Assembly: GCA_964658305.1 (NCBI GenBank)
Contig: OZ210885.1
Span: forward strand, 7,130,001 to 7,194,000
Source: Leptogorgia sarmentosa
Taxonomy: Eukaryota
Reading direction: 5' to 3'
DNA length: 64,000 bases
In this document: positions 16-45,560 of the stretch, piece after piece
Layout: every line of letters begins with the position of its first letter
How positions within the stretch are numbered: position 1 is the first letter of the stretch
Program-made: the position numbers and the translations under genes
Notes under the pieces: model-generated
Database searches by the model: none
Seen by the model: the letters and a program-made list of their open reading frames with translations, nothing else
What the model was told of the DNA's origin: nothing

Positions 16-170
16 CGATGGAACTTCAAGGAAATTTCAAGGAAATTACGAATACTATCTAAGGAATTTAAGGAAATTTTGATGCCAAAAATAGGAAATT
101 TTGATTTAGAAAATGGAAGCACTGATTTTCATACAAATCGAAGAAGGTGTGTACATTCAAATCGCGCTTA
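16..170 (+). promoter_or_regulatory. 5' flank with repeated AAGGAAATT motifs, homologous to the 5' flank of the Kelch gene
   Basis: Colinear with the reverse complement of about 15124-15276 (CGATGG..CAAGGAAATTT..TGGAAnCACTGA..TCGAAG). Confidence 0.6.
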
Positions 171-180
171 ACAATATAAA

Positions 181-515
181 ATGGCCTTCACTGTAAACAG
201 CCCGAACGTCGTTTATACCGACAAGTACATCGAAAGCCTGTTTCAATACGAAACGTCCGAAGTGAAACAAGATTGTGGAAAAATCGAAGTGACTCCGAAG
301 CGAACCGTTTACACGTTTAAAACGGAGAGAAAAGTGCCCAAACTCGGCTGCATGCTCGTAGGCTGGGGTGGCAACAATGGCACTACCCTAACAGCTTCGG
401 TGCTCGCAAATAAATTGAATTTATCGTGGAATACAAAGTCGGGCGTTTCGAAACCGAATTACACTGGTTCGGTGACACAATCTTCGACCGTAAGCTTGGG
501 AGCGGGAGCAGACGG
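181..515 (+). CDS. ISYNA1: Myo-inositol-1-phosphate synthase, N-terminal part (interrupted by transposon insertion)
   Basis: ORF 181.. has the MIPS signature KLGCMLVGWGGNNGTTLT and NYTGSVTQSST. Similarity stops at ..GAGADG where a TIR begins (516). Confidence 0.95.
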
Positions 516-530
516 AGGCCTACTTTGGGG

Positions 531-645
531 GCCAATGTCGGCTAATGTCGCTGCGACAATAGGCGACATTTGGCGACATTGGGGATTTTCAAAGAAAATT
601 CCTTGCGACATTAGGCAACATTAGGCGACATTGGGCGACATTAGG
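531..645. repeat. Left subterminal 10-bp repeats (TTAGGCGACA-like)
   Basis: Two reverse copies followed by several forward copies. Confidence 0.85.
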
Positions 646-3446
646 TTAGATAGATGGACAGTATTAGAAATATTTGTCAGCCCAGGGGCTGAATTGGGGG
701 CCACACCACAGTGACCTGGGGTGCTTATGGACAATAATTGACAAATTTGAATATTCCCATGATCTCCTAGCCTGGAGACCCACTACTATTCTAATAAAAT
801 ACAAAAAATAGTAACTCTGAATAACATTGTTTATATTGTACAGATGTTTGGACTTCAGCAATAATACAAGGAAGCAAAATGTTATTAGGAGTTAATATTC
901 TTTTATGTGAGTTAATGAACATAAAAATCAAAAAATGTCAGTTAATGAGCAGCTATTAATAAATAGCAAAGCAAGTAAATGCAAATCAGCAAGTATTTCA
1001 ATACTGCAATTCATAATTGGTCAATTAATCAAGTTGTTTAAATACTCAGCTTATTGAAAAGTATAAACAGGTAATAATTAATGCATTATATATTGCACAT
1101 ATTGCCCATGGAAGTATTATTTCTTTACCTTACTAAATAACTGTCAACTATTCATTGATATTGTCATATAGCTCATACTGAATTATTTAATCAGCATTCA
1201 GCCATCAGGGTCACGCTTGTTTGCTGTAAACGGACGCTTTGTAAGACCTTCCGGGATATGCAGTTGCTTCTAGGAAGTTTATCAAATGATGTATCGTTGG
1301 ATATGAAAAGCATATCAGTGATTTAATCGTATTTATTATCATTGAAAGTAGCAAAGTCAATTTCATATTCTAAAAAGTCGTGTTTTCGCCATATTAGCAG
1401 CCTGCGGATAGGCAAAATTGTTTCCATAAATGAATAGTAACATTCAATTTCCACTTTTCGGCAAATAAAGTTATAGCCACTGGTCATAGCTGGGATTAAG
1501 AGGTCATTTACATATTAAAAATCCTGAAACTTAATCTCTAATCCTGATCTAAAACCAACCCCAGATCTAACCCTATTGTTTATTGTATTGGCAATCCTGA
1601 CTAATCCTAGTGATTATCTTTGGGGTGTAAAGATATATGAAAGTGATTCTAAAAACAATTACGAGACGAAAGAATTTATCGACAGAAATAGTTAATTATT
1701 AAGTTCGGTCCACTGAGCTAAAGAAATACTGGAGAGAGTGCACGGCATCAAAAAGTGAAGCCAAAATTATGGCGTGGATTCATGCTTGCCACGCCAGATC
1801 CACGCCACTGGAAGAGGTGGGAATTTTGTCTCCGCTGGTCACATATTCGCTGGCGCGGTCATCATTTCTTCGATTTTCATCTCTTGTGCCAACGTGTTCG
1901 GTTTTTGTCACGGCAAATATACCTTTTTTGTGCAAATTATTTGTCGAAACGTAGATTCTTTTGAAGCTCAGGGAGAAATGTTTACGCTACAGAAATTTTA
2001 TTGAGATCGATGTTAGTTTTGAATGAATTTCAGCTGCGAAAACATGGTAGAAAATGCGTTCTGTTAATATTGTCGTGTGTTTATGACGCTAGAAATCTTG
2101 TTTATCACGATCGTACGAACATGGGTAAGTGATTAAATTTTCCTTGATTCTTTAGCTCTCAGAAAGTATCGTTAGATTTCTTGTTGGATATAACATAATA
2201 GCATGATCGTTCGTGTAAAATTGGCTATTCAGAGAATAAGTAGGTTTTTACGAAGTTTTCAAAGCAAAATTGTGCAAAATCTAGTCGAGAGCCTCAAAAC
2301 GAAATCCATTTTAAAAGTGTTCACATGTCCTATACTTTTTAATTTTATAGCAATTTTAGCAATGAAAATTCGCACCGATACGAATTTCGCTCAATTTGTA
2401 AGCGTGGTGTATATTTTGTCCACGTTGTCTTCTCCTAAAATACCGTGTGAAAGTACACTTGATGTACTTTGATTGCCTTCAACTTGCATTTACGTTATTC
2501 TTTACATGCAACAGAAGTAAGGAAAATATAGCATTGCCAAGAATTTGCATTTGTTTTCTGTACTCAATAGGTTAGAGTATTAGTATTTTTTGTCGAGGAA
2601 ATTATGAAGCAACCCGTAAAGAAAAAATGGAATATCTTTAAATTTTGTCGAGAGCCTCAAAACGAAATAGGGATAAAAACACTTTACTTCTACCATAGAT
2701 CACGTTAGTATCATGTTTATTGATATTAAAATTCGCGTTCATAGAAATTTCAGGGTTCAAACATGAGCAGTATGAAACGTTCCACCAAAATTTCTTGCAA
2801 GCGCTGTAAACATTGCGAAGCTTGTACGGGAAATTCCGAGCACCGACCGATGATGAAAATATTTGCCTGGCTTCATGTTGTGTTTCTTTCTTTGCAATAG
2901 AATGACAAAACATTTGCTAAATTTTGCTCTTTATTTCTAAAATTTTTGTTTTCAAAAAATAGCCATGGAAACATGATCTTTAATGACTATTTACATTCTA
3001 TACAAAAATTAATTTAATCATTATTTTTTCAACAAACATTCCTTGTAAATTGATGCAATTTACAATTGTCGAACATTCAGATAAAATCATTAATATTTAT
3101 AATATTTACATTTTATATAATTATAATCTTGAACAAATTATCTTTGCAATGCAATTTAAAATTGTCAAACATTCAGATAACATTGTTGATATTTACATTT
3201 CATACAACTAATTAAATCATTGATTATTATTCCAACAAACATTCCTTGTAAATTGACGCAATTTAGAACTGTCATACATTCAGATGATATTGTTAACATT
3301 TATACTATTATCATTTTGTATAATTATGGCTTTTATTATTTATAATCATGAAATCTAATTTGATTGTCATTGTTCATAATTACCATAGCAAAAAAGATAT
3401 ATGAGACAAAATTTGTTCATAATACTGCATCAGACATTCTTTTGAT

Positions 3447-6400
3447 TTATTCTTCAACATCGCTTTGAATAACTGCGAAGTTTGACCCTGCTAGTGATCC
3501 ATTCCAATGACGTTTCACCATTCCACATAAATATTTCACAAAGTTAAAGATATTGGAGGAGGTGGCAATAATAGCTCCGTGTGGACCATGTTCATGACTG
3601 TCCATTAAACATAAGTTTCCGTCTTTCATAAAAATGAGCATGGATTTATCAGGTGGAACTATCAGGACTGAAGTGAATTCCCTGTGGCTTTTCGCTAATG
3701 TTTCTAATTTCTGAAGAAGTTCGGCAGGTGTAAAAAATCCTGTATCTTCAATAATACTTATTCGATGTTTTAGCATTCTCATTTTTTCAACAACTTCTTT
3801 AACCTCCAGGTTTGGTTGACAAGGATCAATACCAAACTCTTGATACAGGAAATTGCCTTCTCTCATGAACTTGATAAAGTTACTGATGGCTTCAGAAAGT
3901 TGTTGTTCATTTGCCGGAAATGTCATACCACCACTGGCTAATTTAATGGCTCCGAGAACTGATATTATAGTGCAGGCATTGCTACCATGGAAAGAACCAA
4001 AGATTTGGGACTGGGAAATATTGTTTGGCAAGATCCACTCAACAACTCCAGGGTATGTATTTCGTAAAACTGTTATTCCACCAGATGAATAGTTATTGGT
4101 TTTTGAGAGAAGATTATCAGAGCAGGTGAATGATTTGTTTGTTAGGGTCTGGCTATTGTTTTTTCCCCCACATTCTTCAGGTTTCTCTTCTAGATGTTTT
4201 GTGGATGGTGGTGTTGTTTTTGTAACTTGTGTTGCCTGATGGGTTGCATTGCTTGCTTGTGGTCTTTTCTCATGTTGCTTGCTTGTGTTGTTTCCTTGTG
4301 AACCTTGTGTTGGTTGCTTTGGTTGGTTGCTTGTGTTGCTTGAACTTCTTGATTGTGTTGCTGATGTTTGCTTGCATTGTTGCGTTCTTGTGTTGCTGTT
4401 GCTTGCTTCAGTTGGTTGCTTTTGTTGATTGTTTGTATTACTTGTACTATCGTCTCTTATTTTCTTGTTAATTGATGTAATTGCCTCTTCAATATATTGC
4501 TCATCTACATTTGGGATGTTGTTTGTACCTTCATCGTTGTCATGATCTTCTTGTCTTGTATCTGATATGTCCTCCACCTTATCGTTACTTGGATTGTTAT
4601 TGAAGATGGCCTCCTTTGCCACTTTACCCAATTCTTCAATATTGCTTTCCAGCAACTTCTTGCATAAAGGACAGTAAGTGAGGTTTTGCAGGCATTTGTC
4701 ATGGAACGAGTGCCAGCAGCCTTGCAGGATTGACCACTCACCTCCCACTTCTTTACAATCTGGGGAATCACAATTCATGTCCTCATCCGGTGGTCGTTCA
4801 CCATGGAAGCCAAGGGGTAGGATAATGTCGTCCATTCGTTTCTTTCCAAAAATCTCTGGCATTGTAACTGTCATTTTCTTTTTTCTTTTGTCCTTTGAAA
4901 AGTGGAAGGAAGTGTGTGATGGGTTGTTGCGAACTGCTGCCAAGACATCTGCCAAAAATCTAGCACACTTTAGTTTGAGATATTTTAGTTGACCATGAGA
5001 GAATGAAAAGTTCTTTGGTGGAGTAAAAATGGACCGGAAATGCATTTGCTTCGCTTTCGATTGGAATATGCTTTTTACCTTTCTTGTCAGTAGTGAAGCA
5101 GTATCTGAATGTTTTGTTTGTGCCCTTATGATGCTATGGGTGTTCTCAACTGGGTATTCATCAGATATTACGAGCCAATTTTCAAAAAGATGATAAAATT
5201 CTGGGAAACATCTCATCCAATGTGTCATATTCGCAATCCAAACCAATGTTGCTTTGTTGTAATGCCTTCGTCGTAAACATGTAAACATGACCCATATTCT
5301 GATTACCGCATTGAAATATTGGGCAAACTGATTGGATTTGAATGTTACAGGATATATTGACAAAACTAGCGGGATATAATTGTCCAGGAGATTCAAGAGT
5401 GTTCCATATTGCAGGTCTTTGCACATGGCATACGCATTTCGTGTGGTTTCCCTTATCAGCGTCCATCCACCATATACAACTTCTAATAATAGGCTGATGC
5501 ACCAGGGTTTAGGATTCTGTGGTAACTTGCTAGATGCAAAAAGGTACTGGTAGACATTTTTGAAAAATGGGTGAAAGGATAGCAATACATGTTCCCTGCT
5601 ATTAAGTGATATATGAAGAGGACCTATCAGAGGAACAATAGAGGCCATAGGTGGAATAGGAATAGTGGACTTTGATGACTTAGGTGGAAGTGTGGTGTCC
5701 AACTGATTGAAGGCTGCCCTGGTTTGTTGCAAGTACCTAGTGACTTGTTCATACACCAATTGTCTGCTGTAAAACTGGCATGGCCAATCACCTGGTTGGA
5801 TCAAGATGTATTTCTGCATATATAACTTTAAATTTGTGTTGATTGCAATATCGAATGCCTGTCTGAAGTTTTCCTTTGACTTGAGTTGGAGTTCAACAAA
5901 ATCAACCAAATGTAAATTATCCATTCTTCTCATGGTACGAACAGATGGATTTTCACAGTATTCATGTACCGAGATGCGCAGTCGTTCTGATTCTGGCTGA
6001 AAAAATTGTGTCATCATCCAATCTGGCATGGTAGATACATATGTATTTGCCATAAGAGACAATTGATTATTTGAACAGATGACTTGTTTACAAGAATCTA
6101 TATCCACCCCTTGTTCTTCATGAAGGCTGATTATGTTGGTACTAGAGGGTCGTTCTATGGCTTTGAGATTTTTGAATGCCTTTACAACAATTGTACACAT
6201 GCTGGCGGCAGTTGAGGTATGGATTCCTTTTGGTCTTCGATGTGTATGGACATTGGTATAATCATCAATAATGAGAACCAACAACCACTGGTTTTTTATA
6301 GCATCTAGGAGAAAGCTGTTAAGCTGCTGTAAGTTTTGTGTGGCAAGAGAATTGAGGGTGGAGTCCATCGTTCTTCGACAACATGTATTTCCCATGCGGT

Positions 6401-6727
6401 TTTCTGTGTCTATTCCTTCTTGGCTCATGTGGTTACTATTCAGATACAAGGCATGGTCTACCTGCATGACATTACATTGCTGACTTAAACAATAACACAT
6501 CTTATATATGAAAGATACAACTCTTTTCTCATTTAGCTGAATTCGGTTTTGTGAATGCCGGGAATTGGTAACTGCTGAAAGGATTGTATCAAAGAGTGTT
6601 GGGGCTCCAGATGACAAACAGAAGTTTCTCAACTCTTGTGGATCATAAATAGGTGCTTGTTTACCAACAATGAATGCCTGGTACATTGCATCTTTGATAA
6701 CGAGAAGCTCAGTTTTAATGTCACATC
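3447..6727 (-). CDS. Main exon of putative DDE transposase with RING-like finger and C-terminal papain-fold (tegument/VTD-type) deubiquitinase-like domain
   Basis: 1079-aa ORF inside the TIRs. Candidate catalytic motifs VLIIDDY, PGDWP, IGPLH, EYPVENTH. Cys/His cluster CDSPDC..CWHSFHDKC..CPLC. Q/T/S/N linker. GSNACT..LMDSH. Splice acceptor tttag at 6728-6732 (minus strand). Confidence 0.7.
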
Positions 6728-7147
6728 CTAAACAGTAAGAACAGTATATTTTAAGTGGTCATGAATGTTAATTTTTTTATTTACCCCTCTCTCTTTCAAA
6801 CACTTCTGCCCACCCCCACCCACCTGCCCATTTTACTGTACATACGTATATGACTTTTTTATTTATTTATTTATCTTTGTCACAAGACAGGGTGACCACA
6901 ATGCTCAGCATAATGGCAATTACCTCACCATATATTTACACATATTATATAGTACAATAATATATATTATAATATGTTGCTATAAATTATTTAGGAATAC
7001 TTCTGTGGTCAATCAGTCAATTTACTCTTACCCTTAAGCCCCCCTTTCAGGTTGTTATATACTGCAAATAATACCCTACTCAAAAAAGACACACTAATGG
7101 TGCCAGTTGGATATGTTGGAGCTGTTCAGCCTTTGCTGGGTTAAGAC

Positions 7148-7426
7148 TTAAGAAACTACATGTAATCTCGGATAAAATGTCTGACAAATTTGTAATATGA
7201 ATTTTATTTTGTTCTCACTTGTAAGGAGTCTATTCATGTCTTGTTCAATTTCACGAAATACATTCTCGGGTAAAAGAACCCCTTGTGGTCCACGAAGAAT
7301 TTTGCCAAACCTAGACTTTTCTTCACGCCATTCCTCTTCGTTAACATAGCGTTCAACTCGCATTGGTTGTATTTTGCGAACTCGTTTTGGCCGGCCAGGT
7401 TTCAGTTCCAAGCCCAAGGTGGTAGA
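7148..7426 (-). CDS. Second exon of the inner transposon gene (basic, KPGRPKRVRK); 3' boundary unresolved
   Basis: Acceptor tttcag at 7427 joins exon 1 in phase 0. The link to the main exon is unclear (possible frameshift near 7150). Confidence 0.55.
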   Translation of the reverse strand, partial: STTLGLELKPGRPKRVRKIQPMRVERYVNEEEWREEKSRFGKILRGPQGVLLPENVFREIEQDMNRLLTSENKIKFILQICQTFYPRLHVVS

Positions 7427-7522
7427 CTGAAACATTTTAAAAACAACAACAAATTAACGATAGTATAATTGTCCTGTCAATGGGTGAATATATTCTTATT
7501 TTGTACAGGTTTATATACTTAC

Positions 7523-7789
7523 TCTTGTAGATGTTTTCTTCGATATTTTGTATTTATTGAAAGCTCGGTAACAAGCGCTACACAGCACGCCATTGGCGTT
7601 GTTGACCGGACCGAAACAACTTGAAAAATTCGTGTTCGTGGAGTTAACTGTATAGTATCTTTCCGTTTTCTTGCCGTGGGAATCTTTTCGGCCACAAACA
7701 CAGCAAAATTTTCCACTTGCAAAATTAGACGTCGTATAAAAACCCAACAAAACGCCCAGGAAAACAGCGAAATTTTTGTTTATATACAT
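7523..7789 (-). CDS. First exon of the inner transposon gene, C4 zinc finger
   Basis: CCVCGRK...LCSACYRAF. Donor GTAAGT at 7522, phase 0, in frame with the next exon. Start codon uncertain. Confidence 0.6.
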
Positions 7790-9409
7790 TTTATTTACAT
7801 TAAAAAGGGCATTTAAATTTCCCGCCGCTCGCTCAGGGAAAATCACACGAAGGGGAAAACATTCGCGCGTGGTTCAAACAAATTTCCACGCATTTATTTT
7901 TCGCGCATGCTCAGACAAAATTCCCACCTCTTCGCCACTGGTTCCTAATTTTCATTGGAGCACCACTGACCAGAACAAAATTTGAGCCCACTAAAGACTT
8001 GTTTTGGCCAAAATATTTTGGTTTTTGCAAAGGATTTTTCGGTTTTTCTTCCTTTTTTGACATTCTGATATCATTTCCTGCCTTCAAGACGACTGAAGAA
8101 GTGGCGACATCCATTCTAGCTAGTTAAAAATTAAGCGACACAGATATTCGGAGCTCGAAAATCTCATTTGAAACTTGAAAGGTAGTCTTTATAGAAAATA
8201 TTTTATTCAATTTTTTGCATAAAAAAGGGATTACATTTACCTTTTTGGTTGAAAAAACTCTGCTTTTTTTATAAGGATTGCGAAACCGTTTCAGCCGTGC
8301 AAAAATTCGGCCTTTTCGTCTTGATTTTTTCAATATAAAAACAAAATTTCGGCTTTTTTTTACAAAAACATCGTCGGGGAGAACATGAGACCGCTGTTGG
8401 TCAGTGGAAATTATATGAGAAATAGGAACCAGTGGCGTCAGCAACGGTAAAATCCGCCATGTTTTTGGCTTCACTCCTTTGTATGGAAAAAGTCGAGTGC
8501 ACTCTCTCCAGTAATATTATATCTCAGTGGTTCGGTCCCAATCGCAGTCCATTGCACGGAAATCAATATGGCGGCCAATATGGGCAATGTAAATTTCAGG
8601 ATTTAGCAATTTAAAATGTTCCTGTCCGGCCAATTCGTCACGTATGGTTATGTATGATGTAGGACCACTATAGTTTATAAATGTATTGACATCCGCAACG
8701 GAATCATGTTTGAATGCAGTATGCAGACAGGATGTAAGTGTATTTTGTAAAGCAGTATCCAGTATGTCACACATGGAAGTGATAAATGTCTTAAAATTAT
8801 ATGTGAATATATTCTAATTTATTTGGTTTATGCAAATTTCATTTGCATGTTAAACATAAAGTTTTCAGACTGCTACAGTGAACTTGCATACATATTTATA
8901 CCACCTTCATTTGCTATTTGAAAGAGCATTTCACTTTCAAGTCCAAAACTGTTCAAAATAGTAATATGTAGGTATACTTTGTGGATAGTATATGAGAATG
9001 AATAGAGTTTTGATATTTTTTCCATTTCATCAATATACTGACGTTGACGGAATTAGGTTCTAATGAATGACCCCAGGCCCTGGTAAGGAGGGCTATCACA
9101 GCTATAAGTTCAGCTATGTTCTAGTGTTTCTGCTGCACAAAAAAACAGATCTATACTATGCTTTGCATTGACCCAGTTGTTTGAAGGAATAAAAGGCCAT
9201 GTTTTCAATGGGCTAAGTGCCAGGTAGTCTCAACAGGGAGAAAATGCTAACTTTTTAATATATAGCCTAATTATTAAATGTTAGGCATTGCCTTATATAT
9301 ACCAAAAATCAAGAAAGCCTATAAAAATTAACCAATTACTCAAGGATAGGGTAGATATAAGAAGGTAATGCTGGTTGACACTACCTGACATTGGGCAATG
9401 ATGTGCGCT

Positions 9410-9492
9410 AATAGGCGGCATTGGGTGACAATGGGCGACATTAGGCGACATTAGGCGACATAAGGCGACATTAGGCGACATTAGGCGACATT
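9410..9492. repeat. Right subterminal tandem 10-bp repeats (TTAGGCGACA)
   Basis: Directly visible tandem array abutting the right TIR. Confidence 0.9.
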
Positions 9493-9516
9493 GGCCCCCA
9501 AAGTAGGCCTAGACGG

Positions 9517-10819
9517 AGAGGTTTTTGTGCCTCTCAAAGCCCTTCTGCCGATGGTCGAGCCAAACAAAATAGTCTTCGACGGCTGGGATATTAACTCGAT
9601 GAACATCGCCGATGCGATGCAACGCGCCGAAGTGCTGGACTTCGATTTACAACGACAACTTCGTCCGTACCTAGAGCCTCTCAAACCACGACCTTCGATC
9701 TACTGTCCCGATTTCATCGCAGCAAACCAAGCCGACCGGGCCGACAACGTTCTCAAAGGCTCTAAGAAAGACATGGTCAAGCAAATCCGTGCAGATATTC
9801 ATGATTTTAAAGCGAAGAATGCGCTCGACAAGGTCATTGTACTTTGGACGGCGAATACCGAACGGTTTTGCGAAATTCAAGAAGGCCTAAACGACACTTC
9901 GGACAACCTGTTAGCATCAATTGCTCGAAACGAGGACGAAGTATCGCCTTCTACGCTGTTTGCCGTTGCAAGCATTTTGGAAGGCTGTTCGTATATCAAT
10001 GGATCGCCACAGAACACGTTCGTTCCGGGTGTGGTGTCGCTTGCAGAGAAATACCACACATTCCTTGGTGGTGATGATTTCAAATCGGGTCAGACCAAAA
10101 TCAAATCGGTTTTGGTTGATTTTCTCGTCGGCGCTGGCATCAAACCCGTCTCGATCGTAAGCTACAACCATTTGGGGAATAACGACGGCAAAAATCTCTC
10201 GTCTGCGAGGCAGTTTCGTTCCAAGGAGATTTCCAAGAGCAACGTGGTCGATGATATGGTGGAATCGAATCCAATCCTTTACCAGAAAGGTGAGAAGCCG
10301 GATCACTGTGTTGTTATCAAGTATGTACCATATGTAAAAGATAGCAAGCGTGCCATGGATGAGTATACCTCTGAAATATTTATGAATGGCACAAACACAC
10401 TTGTCATACACAACACATGCGAAGATTCGCTCCTGGCCGCACCAATCATCCTCGATCTGGTCATACTCTGCGAGGTTTGCGAGAGGATAAAGTTTCAAGC
10501 TGGCGCCGATACCAATTTCCAGAGCTTTAATACCATTTTGTCCATACTTAGCTACTTGCTCAAGGCACCACTAGTACCCAGCGGAACGCCTGTTGTGAAT
10601 GCATTGTTCCGTCAGCGCGCTTGCATTGAGAACATATTCCGTGCATGTGTCGGACTTGCTCCGCAGAATAACATGTTACTAGAACACAAGCACTCGAGCG
10701 TAGCCCATTCGAAGCCTACGGAATACTCCAATGGCATTTGCGAGATTAATGGAGTTGCAACGAAGTCTGAGAAAAACTCTGATGTCCATGTCCCGGTGTT
10801 AAATTTACTTTGCAATTAA
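9517..10819 (+). CDS. ISYNA1: Myo-inositol-1-phosphate synthase, C-terminal part
   Basis: MIPS motifs [48 protein letters not shown]. Joining 181-515 to 9517-10819 gives an uninterrupted 1638-nt frame (545 aa; ..[13 protein letters not shown]..). Confidence 0.95.
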
Positions 10820-11085
10820 ACACTTAGTAGTTTAGGTCTATTCTAATATATTTAAAGTTTTTCATAAAAAGGTGTAAACTTACATTTGAAGATGCTATTT
10901 TACTCTTCGGCTATTTATTGCTTTAGAGAGCGAGCATTAGGTACTGTGTTGGGCTTGTGGACAGTTTAATGGCAGCAATGTGCCAGAACATTGGTCTAGT
11001 ATTTTGTTAGCTTGTCTCTAGCACTTTATCACAATATTGTTGTTTGATGTTCATAGTATTAAAAAATGTTCAATTGTTAATTGCT

Positions 11086-27686: not shown

Positions 27687-28873
27687 ATATTATACCTCAA
27701 ATTCAAATTGTCCAATGAAAAAACAGCATTTGTACCACGTGATAATGTGATTTTTTACGGTATTTCACTGAAATTCATGATTTCGCAATCCAGCGTGGGA
27801 TACTATAATATCGCACGGCAGATCCACCGTGGGATATTATAGTATCCCACGCTCACGCGTGACGCGTGGGCAACACGCGTTTAGCATATTTATGCAAAAT
27901 GGCGGGCGAGCAAGACTCGACTTGCGGCTAAATAGCGTTTTGGCACCAGCGACGCCATCTTGGATTTTAACGTGAGGGAGACTGGGAACGACGATATTGC
28001 TCGTGGGTTCTCGCGGGTGAGGTAAAATCGTGGTAAAAACGTGGGTATAATTCACTAATGTTGGTAAAATCACAGTTAATGAAAGGAGACCATTAACTGT
28101 GGTAAAATTGTGGGATAATTTAATTTATGAAGTGTTAGCTCGTTGCAGCTATAGAAATAGGAATAAATAGATGGTAATACACAGCCCTATGAAGAATAAG
28201 ACTCAATACATTTAGTAGATTAACCGAAATTATGTAGGCTACCGTCAAGCTCGCGCCTGTTAAACAGGCTCTGATCTGCGCGCGAAATTTTGAGACATGT
28301 CCACATTGATAGATTTCGTCAAGCTTGCTGGAAATCTCTCAAAATTTTGCCGAATACGGGAGGGACTTTGCTTATGCGAATGCCCACCGGTGACTGGCAG
28401 CTTAGCTGATAGCTCTGATTGCTAGGTTTTTCACAAATGAATATTCCCGCGCGCAACAACCTTTATCGTTTGTCTTCGAGCTTTGAGCCTTCGATCTGAA
28501 AATATGTGAAGCTGATTAGGTTGAGACAAAAGAGAAAAGTCGCTAGTGAGTAAACTTTTGCTTCGAGATGATTGTGCGTATCCCAAAGAAATAAACAAGA
28601 AAATATTTGCATAATTATATAGCCTGCATCAGTAATATTTTTACATTTTGCGTCGGCGTTGTATATCGTCCCAGTCTCCCTCACGTTAAAATCCAAGATG
28701 ATGCAAAATATATCGTTCGGTATAATATATCATTTATAGACCCTCCGCTCGGGGGATTCGGCGATATTTCCCTCAGTGATGATATTTTCCTCGGGGCAGA
28801 GCCCCTCGGAAAATATCATCACTTCGGGAAATATTACGCCGAATCCCCCTCGCTCCGGGTCTATAAATGATAA
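27687..28873. mobile_element. Non-autonomous element ending in a 145-bp hairpin (Crypton-like)
   Basis: Absent from the paralogous site at about 19436. No clear TSD or TIR. Terminal hairpin 28728-28872 resembles 37505-37627. Internally deleted copy at 32741-32838. Confidence 0.7.
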
Positions 28874-29325
28874 GTATCTCACTGTCTACTATATAATAAT
28901 TAAACCCATATTTGTGTTTTAATCGTTTTGTTTGGAAGTTTATTCCATATGATACTGTTTTAGTTTTTGGAAATTATTGCTGTCGCAGAACCTCTGCACT
29001 ACGTTTGGTAATTTGACGAAGACTGCAGACTTTACCACTGATAATGTGTGTGGTCTGGTAGAAATTGGCAAAAAACGGTAATTGCCGTGTTCAGGACTCA
29101 AAGTACACACCATAAATTATGTCATATAATACAGTGTGAAACTGAAACTGATACCCAATTCCCTAAGGAATATTTCAGCTGAAAATCTGAAATATATTGA
29201 GGAACAAAATTCTTCTGAATCTTATCTAAATTCTCACATTCCATAGAAATAAATCATATTTCCCCACTTTAGTACAACGCCATCGAGCGGTTTAGATACA
29301 ATAAAAAGAAAATGTTGTACGTGGT

Positions 29326-29398: not shown

Positions 29399-29950
29399 AA
29401 TAACTTTTTCGACACCACTTTTGAGTTTTTTTCTTTGAAATCTACAAATCCTTCTCATCGTTACCAACGACCATTTAATTAGCAAACATAATGATGAATA
29501 ATTTTTTTAGGAAGTAATATTTTCATTCTAAATCCATTCAAAAGCTTGCCTCGCTTCTTGCCCGCCTTTAGGGTGTTCTTAGCCTACCAGCAGGCTCGAG
29601 TATCAGTATCATAGAGAGATTTCCTTGGAAACAGGAATTATGTAACTTGAGTAACTTGACGTAAACAAATTGTATAGAAAAACACTTTTTGGGTAGAAAT
29701 AGACGTATATTTTGATAGAAATGTAAAAATTGGATATCTTTTACGGAATCCATAACTAAAATTACTAAATTGAACAATTGCAATGGGATTTGTTACCGTC
29801 AGGAATTTTACTTCCGTTCGGGAAATTTCACCCGGCATGCATGGAATTCGGTAAATAAAAGTTACTTTGGCGAAAATTTTGAAAAAAAATCAACCACATT
29901 TCAAATCTTGAACTTCGAAGATATTTTTGTTGTTCGTCGAATTTTCTGAA

Positions 29951-31288
29951 ATGGATCCTTCGGAGCTGTGGAAAAAGTCTCATAAATCGAATTTAACTTG
30001 GTGTATATTAAAACGGCAACAGCGTCGTCTTTCACAAGACGAAAAGCGTACAATTTTACGTTATGCTGTGTGCCAAACCTCACATACTCGTCGGGCTGTT
30101 TCGTGCAAGCTTTCTGGGTCACCAACCAGCACTTATTTCCTTACTTTTAGCCCCGATGGAGAGACAATTGCCTCAAGTCACGGGGATCATTCGGTGCGAA
30201 TAAGCAACGTTAAATCTGGTCGCTGTTTGCACGTTTTAAAAGGCCACCCTAGATCAGTTTGGTGTATAGCATTTCACCATTCAGTACCAAATCTGCTAGC
30301 ATCCGGATGCCTTGAGGGTAAAGTAAACATATGGGATTTAAAACTCGATGACCAACCGATTGCTTCACTTAACTGCAATGGTGTGACGTCACTTACATTT
30401 CACCCAACGGACATGGTTCTCCTAGTCGCTACGGGCAACCAGTTGTTACTTTGGTCTTGGCATGACCAGGAACCACTGGTAGTGGCAGAATCTTCTGCTC
30501 TTGAAAAAATTCGGATGGTAAAATTTGACTCGCTCGGACACCACATACTAACTGGTATTCGTGATACAGAACTATTGCACAAAGCAGACCCTACCGGCAC
30601 GGAAAATACACCCATCAACGAAACGTCTGTTGTCCGTATCAATTTACAAAACATGGAAACTACTGTAGGCCGTGTTACTGGAAGTGTTCTTGAGCGTCCT
30701 CGTGGAGTTACAGTGTCAATCCACGATCACACACATTTGTTTCGCCTGCAATGGTGGGACTTTACACAATTGAACTTTCCTGATTTACTGCAAAGAAACT
30801 TAAATGTTGTCGTACGCAACTGCAGATTGCACAACAATCTGAGTGCAGATATATCTGAGGATGGCTGTCTTTTAAGTGCTTTGGTTGCAAAAGTTGAGAA
30901 CAATGTGGAGTTATTTAGACAGGTTTGTGTATTTTCATTGGAACAGTCTAACTTTGGTCAGTGTCTATTTTCAACAAATCTTGGGTGTAACACTATATCC
31001 ACATGTTTCTCACCACTTGGTACTCACATCATCGTTGGTGTAGCATGCGAAAATAGATTGATCCATTTATTGCAAGCGCACCGAGAAGACAGAACTGTGG
31101 CATATATTTTTAAACTAACCGGGCGAGCTGATCATTCATGTGAAGTGACTACATTGAAGTTACAAGCATCTGATGAAAGACAGTTCTCACATTTGAAAGC
31201 GAACAGTGTGGTATGGCATCCAGTAATTGCATATGGATTGATTGCATTTGGTACAAACAATGGAGGTGTGTACTTTCTCCATGTTTGA
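29951..31288 (+). CDS. AMBRA1: Compact intronless AMBRA1-like WD40 protein
   Basis: STYFLTFSPDG..SSHGDHSV..GHPRSVWCIAFH and FRLQWWDFT..NVVVRNCRLHNNLSADISEDG match the two halves of the AMBRA1 split WD40 domain as recalled. First ATG at 29951. May be a paralog rather than the ortholog. Confidence 0.8.
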   Translation: MDPSELWKKSHKSNLTWCILKRQQRRLSQDEKRTILRYAVCQTSHTRRAVSCKLSGSPTSTYFLTFSPDGETIASSHGDHSVRISNVKSGRCLHVLKGHPRSVWCIAFHHSVPNLLASGCLEGKVNIWDLKLDDQPIASLNCNGVTSLTFHPTDMVLLVATGNQLLLWSWHDQEPLVVAESSALEKIRMVKFDSLGHHILTGIRDTELLHKADPTGTENTPINETSVVRINLQNMETTVGRVTGSVLERPRGVTVSIHDHTHLFRLQWWDFTQLNFPDLLQRNLNVVVRNCRLHNNLSADISEDGCLLSALVAKVENNVELFRQVCVFSLEQSNFGQCLFSTNLGCNTISTCFSPLGTHIIVGVACENRLIHLLQAHREDRTVAYIFKLTGRADHSCEVTTLKLQASDERQFSHLKANSVVWHPVIAYGLIAFGTNNGGVYFLHV

Positions 31289-38034: not shown

Positions 38035-39192
38035 TTACCCCGCTCTAATCCCCCAGTCTTTGTAACCTCTTGCTTTGCAATAATCCGCTTTAAGACCCTC
38101 CTTATGCCATTTTCCTTCAGCTATTGCCTCACATATTTGACACCAGTGACCAAATTTTCTGTCCCAATATTGTCCTATAATTGTGTTACTTATATCACCC
38201 AGACCTTTCGTTTTCCATTCCAAAAATTTATTGTACTCCGTCTTATTGTTCATCACGAACTTGAGGCGATCAGCCAAATCCTTGGGGGATTTGAAATCTC
38301 TAACATTCACAATAGCATTCTTTAGGTTTCCTGGCAAGAATTCGTAAATTTTATCTGTACTCATGACTACCGGTACTGCACCAGCATTCAATGCATGAAG
38401 AATTTGATCGTCAACGAAATAATCACAGTCTTGGTTGAAGAATACGATAATAAATTTATAGGACCGTTCAAGATTTTTTTTAACTTCTTTAAAATTACTA
38501 CTGTAGCGCTTTGCCAAACCATTTTTGTTGTGCAAACAGGCACCATAGGAGTCGACTTTAATATATTTCATCAATTCTCTCAGGTAGGCCGTTCTCACTC
38601 GTTCGCAGTTACTGAAAGCGGCCATAATACCTCCAGTTTTGTTTTCAAAAGCAATTGGGGAATCTAGAGTTGGTTTTTTAAATGCAGGTGTTGGAAAATC
38701 GGAATCCAGTCGATAACTTCTTAGTAAATGAAACTGTGACATGTATTTAGGATCCCTTAATACCCCGGTGTAAACAGGATTTTCAAGAGTAGTAAGAACC
38801 CAAGGAATATGCTTAGACGGAGGTAATGGTTTTGGATCTCTTGCATGAACAATAAAAGCTTTAGCTTCTTCAATACGGGAACGATTTGCTGTCACTTCAC
38901 ACGCCACTGGACATTGACCGCGCTCGTTACCTTTTCCCCAAACTCCCTCGGCTCTTGATGCTGGTTTATTCCACAATTTGGACCAAAACAACAGAACGAT
39001 TTTCTCGTCTTGTTTATATGAATCATTGGCAAGAGCTGCGTGTGGCAATGCAGGTGGAAATAGTTTCAGAACACTGCTTTTAATGAAGAAATTGCCTCCT
39101 TTGATATACACCACTAATGTTCCGCTGACAACCACAAGTATCAGGAAAATGTAGAAAAAAATGAAATTTCTCGTGGGTTTTGAGATGGCCAT
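38035..39192 (-). CDS. Alpha-1,3-fucosyltransferase (GT10), intronless type II membrane protein
   Basis: N-terminal TM, C.VT.NRS, ENP, SYRLDSD, FSNC..R, VDSYGAC, YKF..FNQDCDYFVDDQ..AL.AGAVPVV, VRDFKSPKDLA. Confidence 0.9.
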   Translation of the reverse strand: MAISKPTRNFIFFYIFLILVVVSGTLVVYIKGGNFFIKSSVLKLFPPALPHAALANDSYKQDEKIVLLFWSKLWNKPASRAEGVWGKGNERGQCPVACEVTANRSRIEEAKAFIVHARDPKPLPPSKHIPWVLTTLENPVYTGVLRDPKYMSQFHLLRSYRLDSDFPTPAFKKPTLDSPIAFENKTGGIMAAFSNCERVRTAYLRELMKYIKVDSYGACLHNKNGLAKRYSSNFKEVKKNLERSYKFIIVFFNQDCDYFVDDQILHALNAGAVPVVMSTDKIYEFLPGNLKNAIVNVRDFKSPKDLADRLKFVMNNKTEYNKFLEWKTKGLGDISNTIIGQYWDRKFGHWCQICEAIAEGKWHKEGLKADYCKARGYKDWGIRAG

Positions 39193-39824
39193 AACGTTGC
39201 ACGAGTCAATTTTCCCAATGGTGAAAATTCATGAAACTGCAACTGCAAGAGATACAGAATACATTTGCTTTAGTATAATTATAATCCAAATGAGAATCTA
39301 TGAGTCGCCATTCGCCCATCATGCCTGTAAACAATCTTGGCTAGTAACCCAAGCCTACTGAGGCTTCAAGCTGTCGACTGCCTTATATATAAAAGTATTG
39401 AATGAATTGAATGATATCGTCCCTAGAGTCGATTAAAATAGATTTGAACGGCAACATCGATCTACTGGACGGATTTGATTAAAGTGAATTATTGTTTTAC
39501 ATTGGGAAGGGCAATATTACCATTCCCGCGCGGCGGGAACAAATGAACAAACACGTTCAAATAAATGCGTCAAGTAAATATATGTGGTATTACTTATCAA
39601 TCGAATGAACTAAATACGGTTTAAAATTATGGTTTTCTTGTTTTAACGTGTTGACTGTGTTACTGCATCAATTGTGCGCTCTATTTACGATGGCAACAGG
39701 GAGACGGCAATTTATAATATCCACGGCAGTGGTTGATAGTTTTTCGAGGTTATTTTTGTCCATGACCAACCTATACAACCTATATACATATATATAGTAT
39801 GCAAAACGTTTGCGTCGGACCAGA

Positions 39825-40786
39825 ACGTATCCGCGCCATGCATGTATTCCACATACGTATCCGAGGCATGTATTCCAGATACGTATCAGAGGCATGTATT
39901 CCAGATACGTATCAGAAGCATGCATTCCAGATACGTATCCGAGGCATGCATTCCAGATACGTATCAGAAGCATGCATTCCAGATACGTATCCGAGGCATG
40001 CATTCCAGATACGTATCAGAGGCATGTATTCCAGATACGTATCAGAAGCATGCATTCCAGATACGTATCAGAAGCATGCATTCCAGATACGTATCAGAGG
40101 CATGCATTCCAGATACGTATCAGAAGCATGCATTCCAGATACGTATCCGAGGCATGTATTCCAGATACGTATCAGAAGCATGCATTCCAGATACGTATCA
40201 GAGGCATGTATTCCAGATACGTATCAGAGGCATGTATTCCAGATACGTATCAGAGGCATGCATTCCAAATACGTATCAGAGGCATGTATTCCAGATACGT
40301 ATCCTTGGCATGCATTACAGATACGTATCCTTGGCATGTATTCCAGATACGTATCCGAGGCATGTATTCCAGATACGTATCAGAGGCATGTATTCCAGAT
40401 ACGTATCCGAAGCATGTATTCCAGATACGTATCCGACGCATGTATTGCAGATACGTATCAGAGGCATGTATTCCAGATACGTATCCGAAGCATGTATTCC
40501 AGATACGTATCCGACGCATGTATTGCAGATACGTATCAGAGGCATGTATTCCAGATACGTATCAGAGGCATGCATTCCAGATACGTATCCGAGGCATGTA
40601 TTCCAGATACGCATCAGAAGCATGTATTCCAGATACGTATCAGAGGCATGTATTCCAGATACGTATCAGAGGCATGTATTCCAGATACGTATCCGAAGCA
40701 TGTATTCCAGATACGTATCCGACGCATGTATTGCAGATACGTATCAGAGGCATGTATTCCAGATACGTATCCGAAGCATGTATTCC
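39825..40786. repeat. Minisatellite, 26-bp unit GAGGCATGTATTCCAGATACGTATCA, about 37 copies
   Basis: Head-to-tail units with no spacers; each contains the palindrome GATACGTATC. Confidence 0.95.
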
Positions 40787-41438
40787 TAAATAACTAAACA
40801 CGTCTAGGTGTGTAAAATATGATATGAGAAGGTACCACTCGCTACGGACGCCTTGTACAACAGTGGAGTGTATCGCAGTTATTATTTATCAAGTTGTTCG
40901 CCCTGTTTTAAATAGTGGTGTAAAATTTTTTTATGAAAAGAAATGGGGATAAAAAAATTTTTAGCTTGAAAACATTTTCTCTTCAGCCCCTACCCCTGCC
41001 ATAAATAATGACCGGTCCCTTAGACGCAGTCGTCGGAACATAATCGGAAAAACGAGCAGGATTTCCATACGCTCGGAGTTTATCGTGAGAATACAGCGTT
41101 AAAAACCAATACCAGCCGACAATTTCAAAAAATATAATACAAAACATAATCCGAAGATTAACATCTTCATACCCAAGATATGAGTTAAAACAAGACAAAA
41201 ATGAGTTTGTGATCATCATCATATCTTCGGATTATGTTTTGTATTATACAGCGTTAGTGATTGGATTGGCGAAGAAAAAATGTTCATTCCGAAAATGCGT
41301 TTTATTGAACTAAAAAAGTCATAATTATTTACCATAACCACTATTGGAAATGACAATGCTGTAATAAAAATCACGTTAATATTCTCCATTGGAGATTCTC
41401 CGTCATGATTAGTGCTACATAACATGGTTATGTGTATT

Positions 41439-44696: not shown

Positions 44697-44762
44697 TTGT
44701 GAATAAGTATTCATCCATTTCGTCTTTGGTTATTCGTTACAGATATAGAAATAAATATATAT

Positions 44763-45560
44763 GTTATTTACCAGCTGGGTATAATATTTTGTCGAGGTCT
44801 CAAAAACGGCCCGAGGCCGAAGGCCGAGGGACGTTTTTGAGACCGAGATAAAATATTTTCCAGTACGGACCGACCTAAATGGTAAATAACTTATTTATTT
44901 TTTTTCTGCTCGAAGCTATAATAAAACTCATAAGAAATTCCAGTGTTGCGAAGTAGATTTGAGATCAGTTGTGTTTGTTTACTTTGCTACTCTATCGCAA
45001 GTATGGCTGCTAAACAGCCAAGACGAAGTGAGAAAAAACCCTTCAATATTGACGCATTTTTTTCACTCAACATTACTACGAAAAAGGTAAACTTATTAAA
45101 ATTATTTATTTTCTCGTTCGTTTCACGATACAAACATGGTTAAAATACGCTTTAGACACCGAAATATTTCGCCGAGAATGTTTTGTTTTGTTCATTCTGA
45201 TGAGTTTTTGTCGCTGTAAATACCCCCTAAAATAACCCTTAGCATAATAAAATGAACTTTCATGTGCTCTTTATCGCCAAAATTCGTTTTGAATGTTTTA
45301 AAAAGCGGCCATTCAATTTTAAAAAACAAAAACATTGACTATATTTGTATCTACGAATGCGAGCCGTCCGTACGGTATAGGATACGGACCGCTCGGCAAC
45401 CAATCGGAAAGCTCTATTTAGGTTACGGACCTGGAGTTACGGACCGGAAAAAAATAAAAGCTGTTATTTTTTTGTAAATCAGCAGCGGGCGGAATCCTAG
45501 CGTTTTCTGCAATCTGATTGGCTGCAGCAGCGGGCGGAATTCCACGGTCCGGAATCCTAA
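44763..45560. mobile_element. Second copy of the hairpin-headed repeat at 15469
   Basis: High similarity to 15469-16150. Confidence 0.75.

Follow-up and report, generated by a model that had tools for sequence, protein, structure and literature searches.

The window, a 64,000-nucleotide stretch of Leptogorgia sarmentosa contig OZ210885.1, carries three nested mobile elements: a transposase-coding element lies inside a CAC-ended MITE, which in turn lies inside an outer non-coding TIR element (Table 1). The outermost element sits within the reading frame of a myo-inositol-1-phosphate synthase and splits it. Its empty site is present in all four runs, in which 509 is joined to 9511 and 9001 nucleotides are skipped.

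Table 1. Positions of the elements, their ends, and the predicted coding features in the window
Feature	Position	Strand	Details
Myo-inositol-1-phosphate synthase frame, 5' part	172..515	+	PF07994, E 9e-20
Outermost non-coding TIR element	516..9510	.	2168 bp without inserts; perfect 25-bp TIR; 6-bp TSD AGACGG
Host MITE 8-bp TSD GTTCGGTC	1703..1710; second copy 8530-8537	+	Exact flanking repeat
Host MITE, left part, CAC terminus	1711..1811	.	689 bp in total with right part
9-bp TSD CGCCACTGG, left copy	1803..1811	+	Direct repeat; "both = 9" at empty-site joint
Transposase-coding TIR element, autonomous-type	1812..7932	-	6121 bp; TIR and TSD by sequence; empty site
Left TIR (3' of gene) AAGAGGTGGGAATTTTGTCT	1812..1831	+	Perfect 20 bp
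Predicted exon 3	3447..6727	-	Helical domain, predicted RNase H DDE core with helical insertion, RING-like finger, Q/S/T-rich linker, VTD domain
VTD-type deubiquitinase domain (predicted)	3450..4109	-	Cys (3974), Asp-x-His (3602, 3596); AF2 pLDDT 92.7
RING-H2-like finger	4662..4772	-	Pfam RING families below cut-off; weak RING E3 matches in PDB
Predicted catalytic E, VENTH, E686	5145..5147	-	58/58 A3, 97/97 A1; helix after insertion domain in model
Invariant His of GPLH, H530	5613..5615	-	Occupies the C/DxxH signature place; G and H each 58/58 (A3)
Predicted catalytic D2, GDW, D472	5787..5789	-	58/58 A3, 96/97 A1; after a later strand in model
Predicted catalytic D1, IIDD, D313	6264..6266	-	D in 57/58 A3 rows (1 gap), 97/97 A1; strand 1 of model
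Predicted exon 2, basic	7219..7426	-	GT-AG, in frame; homolog P0028 aligns, running on into exon 3
Predicted exon 1, 89 codons	7523..7789	-	Hydrophobic signal-peptide-like start (hydropathy), then C4 zinc finger
Right TIR (5' of gene)	7913..7932	-	Resembles an end of related element L003 (85% over 27 nt, E 0.001)
9-bp TSD CGCCACTGG, right copy	7933..7941	+	Direct repeat
Host MITE, right part	7942..8529	.	Deepest stretch of all in X1 and X2, by a wide margin
Myo-inositol-1-phosphate synthase frame, 3' part	9511..10819	+	PF07994, E 4e-113; PF01658

No frame in the 689 bp of the host MITE exceeds 130 codons. Its ends, CACTGAG at 1711 and CTCAGTG at 8529, had been described in the first-pass annotation as TIRs of about 100 bp with an exact 8-bp flanking repeat. 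Both are present; the inverted repeats are gapped, and 8 bp is the sole match among repeat lengths of 4 to 12. A register with a 6-bp TSD and CCAC ends fits equally well, and the MITE junction contigs listed align from 1710 (16 contigs) or from 1711 (4 contigs). In X1, X2, and X7 (three of the four runs), 1702 is joined to 8530 with 6827 nucleotides skipped, which is an empty site for the full span of 1711-8529.

The inner element has an empty site of its own: contigs of X6 and X7 (two of the four runs) join 1802 to 7933, skipping 6130 nucleotides (6121 + 9). A deep X1 contig begins exactly at 1812, the left end of the element, and none of 300 Markov-simulated versions of the region yielded a perfect 20-mer inverted repeat with distant arms. 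For the window element alone, a 7-bp register with one extra terminal base fits as well. A joint of 2956 to 7534, seen in all four runs, marks a derivative that has lost internal sequence but retains both ends. The true transposase-carrying DNA transposon is 1812-7932, not 1711-8529.

The complete TIR transposon originally called at 1711..8529 is thus a TIR DNA transposon with other ends. That a single 6.8-kb CAC-ended element with an 8-bp TSD was moved by this transposase, as first proposed, is very improbable. The CAC ends, the 8-bp repeat, and the empty site of the full span are real, but the inner perfect TIRs come with a 9-bp TSD and a separate empty site, and the CAC inverted repeats continue past the inner junction, reaching about 130 bp once the inner element is removed. 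Moreover, none of the 26 TIR pairs mapped for the transposase and its relatives has CAC termini; the protein is instead accompanied by termini starting with A and TSDs of 9-10 bp, and the inner TIR sequence is common to relatives. The CAC ends and 8-bp TSD belong to the non-coding MITE. The novelty claimed for CAC termini, 8-bp TSD, and protein together fails because the termini and TSD come from one element and the protein from another, and the case illustrates how nesting can yield a false "new combination". The transposase element would have inserted into an unrelated MITE, itself presumably moved by another transposase.

Predicted gene and protein domains

The inner element contains a 1103-codon open frame at 3447-6758, with 1079 aa from the first Met. 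A spliced model of three predicted exons with GT-AG introns is stop-free and encodes 1251 aa, in agreement with the minus-strand gene initially drawn as a C4 finger exon, a basic exon, and a 1079-aa exon. Homologous first exons lie upstream of the transposase at L001-L004, L015, L016, L026, L034, L049, L074, L081, and L092. The window element has no second long frame, and no helicase gene in particular.

A signal-peptide-like N-terminal stretch is present in four animal lineages; a literature search, mostly at title or listing level, found no report of a transposase with a signal peptide. In the ESM Atlas, the only match to exon 1 is FAM60A (0.79), which is no more than a lead.

Judged by its predicted fold and conserved motifs, the protein is an RNase H-type DDE transposase with a helical insertion, as had been proposed. 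The IIDD, GDW, GPLH, and VENTH motifs, with the acidic triad, are conserved in alignments A1 and A3, and GxxH is found between D2 and E in every row of both (97/97 and 58/58). Structure prediction and a Foldseek search, the check suggested at the outset, gave a predicted RNase H fold in a largely helical core model of 699 residues (pLDDT 92.3), in which the E helix follows an all-helical insertion. In a ranking drawn from Foldseek's top 1000, the highest structural Z values are for P (10.5; 337 aligned, rmsd 5.2), Hermes (9.6), ISCth4 (8.2), RAG1 (7.3), and HzTransib (7.2); Z values of 7-10 are moderate for a predicted, largely helical core of this size. The listed structural matches with Z of at least 5 are all DDE transposases or RAG1, and the first unrelated row has Z 4.7. 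Foldseek gave no match to the core at E ≤ 0.001 (best 0.068), and PDB sequence searches returned nothing for it. No Pfam family reached its cut-off over the core in 58 members, and no IS family occurs among 20 NCBIfam families.

The RING-like finger and the tegument-type deubiquitinase-like domain of the first-pass annotation were both recovered. A RING-like pattern occurs in 72 of 165 proteins that carry both core motifs. The predicted model of the second domain adopts a papain-like VTD fold that includes the Cys and Asp-x-His residues, and its Foldseek matches include 8adb (E 8.4e-7) and MCMV M48 (E 6e-4). Among 32 aligned relatives, the active-site columns hold Cys in 30, His in 31, and either Asp (18) or Glu (14), so that Glu-x-His replaces the canonical Asp-x-His in 14. 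The predicted fold and the Cys and Asp-x-His residues are shared with VTD deubiquitinases from Helitrons and from herpesviral tegument proteins (8adb, 8adc, 8add, 2j7q), whereas the domain here adjoins a RING-like finger and is fused to the DDE transposase of a TIR element with mapped ends. Cnidarian VTDs are described as fused to "several transposon-associated domains" (PMC9741609).

Relatives and their elements

Relatives were found in cnidarians, a sponge, a hemichordate, amphioxus, a nucleariid, and a glomeromycete, with Acropora, Exaiptasia, Branchiostoma, and Gigaspora among those named; the last bears out the glomeromycete likeness suggested earlier. The family numbers 620 representatives at E ≤ 1e-30, rising to 3291 at E ≤ 0.001, and every database name of a relative is "uncharacterized", "hypothetical", or "RING-type domain-containing". 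The VTD domain occurs in some animal members. For this large "uncharacterized" family, which extends from corals to mycorrhizal fungi and is missed by domain-based annotation, the analysis supplies an identity together with mapped ends and a rule for TSDs.

TIR pairs were found at 24 of 54 relative loci examined, and a scan of 11 further loci for TIR pairs with TSDs added one usable pair, L092. With L092 and the window there are 26 pairs, 20 with both flanks and five with exact TSDs (window, L001, L072, and L092, 9 bp; L003, 10 bp). A TSD is absent at the other 15 loci with both flanks; mixed flanks from collapsed assembly are seen at L002 and are assumed for the other TSD-less loci. L078 and L080 have no TSD, and their right ends were read by eye. 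The elements of relatives mostly terminate in A[AG]CA, and those of 2.9-6.4 kb bounded by TIRs (L003, L011, L043, L061, L072) contain no second gene.

Homes outside eukaryotes were considered and rejected. Two of 133 pattern matches came from a GTDB scan, both on short MAG contigs and one with the same intron layout, and they are read as eukaryotic carry-over. None of 57 matches lay in viral contigs, and BFVD gave no match at E ≤ 0.001.

Placement among DDE transposases

DUF6589/AcademH is the nearest named family by embedding and by motif order. DUF6589 tops the ESM Atlas list for the transposase (0.95; 28 of 30 matches). The DUF6589 (PF20231) cut-off of 27 bits is reached by none of 58 members, one of which scores 17.7 bits (E 0.0016). 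A DUF6589 gene found in the analysis faces a RecQ-like helicase, which is the AcademH layout. AcademH and the window family share the motif order D[DN]-GD-GxxH-E, a similar D1-D2 spacing (151, against 157-170 in four of the five window-family proteins listed), and a similar D2-H spacing, and both occur in animals and fungi. They differ in H-to-E spacing (156-164 in the window family versus 288 in the one AcademH-like protein measured). AcademH is associated with a helicase, whereas complete window-family elements have no helicase gene; the RING-like tail, with VTD in some animal members, also distinguishes the window family.

TSD length, too, agrees with AcademH. AcademH has TSDs of 9-10 bp (PMC10045372), as do the window element, L001, L003, L072, and L092. 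AcademX is defined by 3-4-bp TSDs and an encoded nuclease (PMC10045372); TSDs here are 9-10 bp, and no second gene was found in the elements examined. The same source suggests that TSD length in these two Academ lineages hinges on the helicase or the nuclease. Elements of the window family, which have 9-10-bp TSDs with neither gene, bear on that suggestion.

The preferred reading, which we hold to be probable, is that 1812-7932 is a DNA transposon moved by its one predicted 1251-aa D-D-E protein and is a likely distant, helicase-free relative of AcademH, with weak support at the sequence level. The family may instead already be catalogued in Repbase or Dfam, as Academ, MuDR, or an unclassified group with 9-bp TSDs, and the element be merely a new member. 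This is a real if minority possibility: the family is common in well-studied genomes (Acropora, Exaiptasia, Branchiostoma, Gigaspora), its TSD length is that given for AcademH in PMC10045372, and Repbase families often appear solely in Repbase Reports. On the other hand, the 58 members lack a core Pfam family at cut-off, the names of relatives are uninformative, and no description of the transposon family was found in a literature search that worked mostly at title or listing level, with Repbase and the original AcademH paper outside its reach.

That the family forms a superfamily-level branch of its own within the helical-insertion DDE clan (P, hAT, MuDR/IS256, Kolobok, Dada), with the DUF6589 likeness reflecting shared clan membership only, is rather unlikely. 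Consistent with it, P, Hermes, and ISCth4 lead the structural list, the family has its own termini, a compact one-gene build, and a range from animals to fungi, and its 3291 representatives make it large. Global alignment with AcademH-like proteins was unsuccessful and the profile comparison is not significant: hhalign gave a probability of 0.8-1.4% (E 0.04-0.07), covering the N-terminal helical region only, against a four-sequence template. Against a separate branch, 105-107 hhalign columns are in register versus 9-27 in reversed or shuffled controls, the Atlas neighbours are DUF6589, and G precedes xxH in 58 of 58 members, as in three of four AcademH-like proteins. The structural ranking cannot test Academ, because no Academ chain is among the matches listed.

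P, hAT (Hermes), and IS256/MuDR (ISCth4) share the predicted RNase H core, including an all-helical domain inserted between D2 and E, at 9-12% identity. The C/DxxH signature in that interval is a trait of hAT, P, MuDR, and Kolobok, as well as of Dada (PMC9587614), whereas the window family has GxxH throughout. hAT TSDs are usually 8 bp (PMC12730594). The matches listed include no P or hAT Pfam family, and MULE and Transposase_mut are absent among the best 25 of 68 Pfam families at E ≤ 1, and the 20 NCBIfam families include neither; the TSD length of MuDR/IS256 is compatible with the window family. Zisupton has an 8-bp TSD, in contrast to the 9-10 bp found here. The P element TSD is 8 bp.

Transib, RAG1, and CMC have the same overall architecture as the predicted core (Z 5-7.3), and RAG1 also carries an N-terminal C4 finger and a RING. 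The window element differs in its non-CAC termini, its TSD length, and the position of its RING-like finger, C-terminal to the catalytic core. CMC, Transib, and RAG1 are marked, in the stretch from D2 to E, by C(2)C and H(3-4)H motifs (PMC12730594); in the window family, the invariant or ≥90% columns of that interval hold no Cys and one His. The branch first suggested, comprising Transib/RAG1, Chapaev, and Academ, is narrowed: Academ is the best pointer, and RAG1, Transib, and Chapaev are disfavoured because their signatures are not conserved and P, Hermes, and ISCth4 score higher structurally.

Proposed transposition and ubiquitin-related functions

In the proposed mechanism, the transposase would cut both ends through an RNase H-type D-D-E site and paste the element elsewhere. 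The N-terminal C4 finger and helical domain may bind the TIRs, and D313, D472, and E686 would coordinate a pair of metal ions for the cleavage and strand-transfer steps. The cut would be staggered by 9, sometimes 10, bases, mostly beside a pyrimidine, with the gaps filled by the host. Internally deleted copies could be mobilised by the same enzyme. Compact intact members, 2.9-4 kb long, bring a first excision assay of an Academ-like enzyme within practical reach.

A bolder reading, which we consider quite unlikely, is that of an unnamed superfamily-level one-gene DDE lineage of animals, nucleariids, and glomeromycetes that has AcademH-length TSDs without a helicase. In one animal branch, its product would be a polyprotein, either targeted to membranes or diverted to secretion, that combines a signal or anchor peptide, a zinc finger, a DDE core, a RING ligase, and a deubiquitinase and controls its own location and turnover. 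In the preferred reading, the RING-like finger and VTD domain may act on ubiquitin, probably sparing the transposase or its complex from degradation. A RING-like finger adjoining a VTD offers a direct test of why transposons encode deubiquitinases.

Three nested elements

Contigs of the four sequencing runs compared with the window over 100-11000 (X1, X2, X6 and X7, of 24 listed; all contigs) carry pre-insertion joints at three levels. The joint that omits the innermost, transposase-bearing element (1802 to 7933, skipping 6130 = 6121 + 9) occurs in X6 and X7, that of its host MITE (1702 to 8530, skipping 6827 = 6819 + 8) in X1, X2 and X7, and that of the outermost element (509 to 9511, skipping 9001 = 8995 + 6) in all four. 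The two inner joints may derive from other copies of the repeats rather than from this locus; pre-insertion sequence is evident either way.

The first-pass annotation took the CACTGAG start at 1711 and the CTCAGTG end at 8529 as the transposase element's termini. Both are present, as is an 8-bp direct repeat (GTTCGGTC) on both flanks (among k = 4 to 12 only k = 8 matches), but they belong to the host MITE and the element bounds were misplaced, because of the pre-insertion joints and because the CAC inverted repeats run on across the inner-element junction, to ∼130 bp. Once the inner element is removed, the MITE is 689 bp with no frame above 130 codons; it can be read with an 8-bp TSD and CAC ends or a 6-bp TSD and CCAC ends.

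A repeat scan of the window finds a second inverted pair inside (1811-1831 and 7913-7933). Four registers were tried. With 1812-7932 the TIR is perfect over 20 bp and the flanking repeat is an exact 9 bp; with 1811-7933 the repeat measures 7 bp, and the other two registers fail. Among family ends the base immediately outside the terminal A is C in 20, T in 17, G in 7 and A in 5. This variation favors the 9-bp over the 7-bp register and also suggests a mild target preference at insertion sites. A distant perfect 20-mer inverted repeat arose in none of 300 simulated regions.

All four runs contain an internally deleted form of the inner element (joint 2956 to 7534), whose X1 contig starts exactly at 1812. 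A second internal deletion form, in X6, joins 3173-4051 to 6536-7147; it has lost the catalytic core and kept the VTD (deubiquitinase) region. X1 depth is mostly 8-13 across the middle of the coding region, where one bin reaches 20, 5-12 across the synthase described below, ∼105 over 1920-3011 and 357-1145 over the right part of the MITE. These depths are not copy numbers and indicate only that full copies are few, deleted copies more frequent and MITEs numerous.

The outermost element, possibly hAT6-like, has subterminal 10-bp tandem repeats and splits a myo-inositol-1-phosphate synthase coding sequence (PF07994; 172-515 and 9511-10819). Since all four runs carry an uninterrupted synthase allele, the 9-kb nest looks like a polymorphic loss-of-function insertion.

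Features of the window
Feature	Position	Strand	Remarks
Predicted exon 1	7789-7523	minus	GT-AG intron follows
Predicted exon 2	7426-7219	minus	GT-AG intron follows
Predicted exon 3	6727-3447	minus	
Signal-peptide-like or signal-anchor-like start of predicted transposase	7715-7789; in related loci L003 1608, L081 1898, L011 659	minus (window)	four animal-type lineages
Element 3' non-coding region	2988-3327		∼three diverged AT-rich copies, roughly 100 bp each
Host MITE	1711-1811 + 7942-8529		very abundant family, many internal deletion forms, some only ∼50-60 bp
Outermost TIR element	516-1710 + 8538-9510		non-coding, 2168 bp, 25-bp perfect TIR, 6-bp TSD
RING-TRAF zinc finger and Kelch repeats (by eye)	13567-15066	minus	single frame, 499 aa
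WD40 protein, AMBRA1-like (by eye)	29912-31288	plus	single frame
Frame resembling alpha-1,3-fucosyltransferase (by eye)	38035-39228	minus	
Tandem array	39820-40790		unit ∼26 bp (78-bp super-period), three frames open
Palindromic or TIR-bounded repeats (self-comparison)	15457-16154, 19932-20985, 27687-28878, 44749-45537, 49285-49502, 52239-52658		probably MITEs

The transposase and its domains

The long open frame reported earlier stands (1103 codons, 3447-6758, minus strand). With predicted introns of 96 and 491 bp, the spliced model is a stop-free 1251 aa. The Exaiptasia protein P0028 aligns with predicted exon 2 and continues into exon 3, and a homologous C4-finger first exon lies upstream of the transposase in several related loci.

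In an AF2 model covering residues 1-699 of exon 3 (mean pLDDT 92.3), the predicted catalytic D313 (IIDD) lies on strand 1 of an RNase H-like sheet and D472 (GDW) follows a later strand; the insertion, all helical, begins at GPLH, which contains H530, and E686 (VENTH) lies on the next helix. Across 58 diverse members the first Asp is conserved in 57, and the second Asp, G, H and E in all. Foldseek with the core model returns nothing at E ≤ 0.001, its top three rows being RAG1 and P transposase. A VIA structural ranking places P transposase first (Z 10.5, rmsd 5.2, 337 aligned), followed by Hermes (9.6), ISCth4 (8.2), RAG1 (7.3), HzTransib (7.2) and Mos1 (5.5); the first unrelated row, at Z 4.7, falls below all of these.

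The C-terminal 220 residues have a confidently predicted fold matching VTD structures (8adb, E 8.4e-7) and MCMV M48, with the Cys and Asp-x-His arrangement described for VTD domains (PMC9741609) in place. Pfam gives the window protein RING matches only, all sub-threshold. A RING-like pattern occurs in 72 of 165 proteins having both core motifs, and the VTD in 49 of 289 core-bearing proteins, many of them fragments; the RING-like finger belongs to the family as a whole, and the VTD is an addition in some animal members.

Family and placement

A homolog search retained 143 proteins of 5838 candidates, and none of the 120 listed has a precomputed domain. A profile from 97 homologs reaches 3291 representatives at E ≤ 0.001, of which 620 also pass E ≤ 1e-30. 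In a metagenome scan, 267 of 467 pattern matches were confirmed as relatives (80 kept). Named relatives belong to corals, one anemone and one jellyfish, as well as to Oscarella, Ptychodera, Branchiostoma, Pompholyxophrys and Gigaspora. A FastTree built from 57 cores and rooted at its midpoint places the window with coral-type sequences and the low-GC loci with the Gigaspora protein, so a cnidarian is the probable host.

Among the 54 kept loci with usable flanks, 24 have TIR pairs, or 26 pairs with L092 and the window. The 52 ends begin AGCAT (23), AGCAG (12), AACAG (8), AAGAG (2), AACAA (2), TGCAG (2) or AGGAT (1), two being mis-registered; one end of the window element matches an L003 end at 85% over 27 nt. 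TIR-bounded elements span 2.7-6.4 kb, with a single gene in those whose frames were listed. Exact TSDs (9, 9, 10, 9 and 9 bp) flank 5 of the 20 pairs having both flanks and are absent from 15. Locus L002 is a collapsed assembly, because one flank is that of L003 and the other that of L001; the same is assumed for the other TSD-less loci. L092 (5378-9151) is an internally deleted member with exon 1, part of the core, the VTD region and an exact 9-bp TSD.

ESM Atlas ranks DUF6589 clusters first (0.95, 28 of 30 matches). At locus L085 (G001:C607, 6100-12010), a DUF6589 gene faces a RecQ-like helicase in a frameshift-broken, AcademH-like element. This gene-facing-helicase layout is what AcademH's name implies, so DUF6589 is probably the AcademH transposase. 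The source genome, G001, is filed as a bacterial MAG and evidently contains eukaryotic contigs. Alignment by hhalign of the window family with AcademH-like proteins gives P 0.8-1.4% and E 0.04-0.07, with 105-107 columns in register versus 9-27 in one reversed and five shuffled controls. No window-family member exceeds the DUF6589 Pfam cut-off, and neither global alignment nor a single-sequence template matches AcademH-like proteins. That the family has already been catalogued is possible but doubtful.

Four AcademH-like proteins have the motifs FDNID, GDQ, GDWH and EHxN, not all in each. The one AcademH-like protein measured has a D1-D2 spacing of 151, against 157-170 for four of the five window-family members listed, but an H-E spacing of 288, against 156-164. 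AcademH has a helicase, whereas the window element has none. TSDs are 9-10 bp in AcademH and 3-4 bp in AcademX (PMC10045372). A CMC/Transib placement was rejected, as the motifs defined in PMC12730594 are unconserved in the window family. The window element is real and apparently intact, behaves like an Academ/P/hAT-clan transposon and lies outside AcademH as defined. A superfamily of its own is an unlikely reading, slightly more so than prior cataloguing; the preferred classification is an Academ-like lineage that lacks a helicase and has TSDs of 9-10 bp.

Proposed mechanism and a hydrophobic N terminus

By analogy with established DDE chemistry, one multidomain enzyme would perform cut-and-paste transposition. 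Its zinc finger and helical domain would bind the TIRs, D313, D472 and E686 would direct two-metal cleavage and strand transfer, and a target cut staggered by 9-10 bases would be repaired by the host to give the TSD; deleted copies could be mobilized in trans. Excision by hAT and RAG proceeds via a hairpin. The VTD may protect against K48-linked degradation, a role borrowed from that suggested for transposon VTDs (PMC9741609).

The first exon begins hydrophobic in the window, the L003 and L081 groups and L011 (starts picked by eye), and is not so in five fungal-type members and L018. The best 11-residue hydropathy is 2.65, 3.23, 2.74 and 3.69, respectively; a value of 2.65 is attained by ∼3% of the frames in this DNA that open with ATG (16 of 650 and 39 of 1290), and three of these lineages are related to one another.
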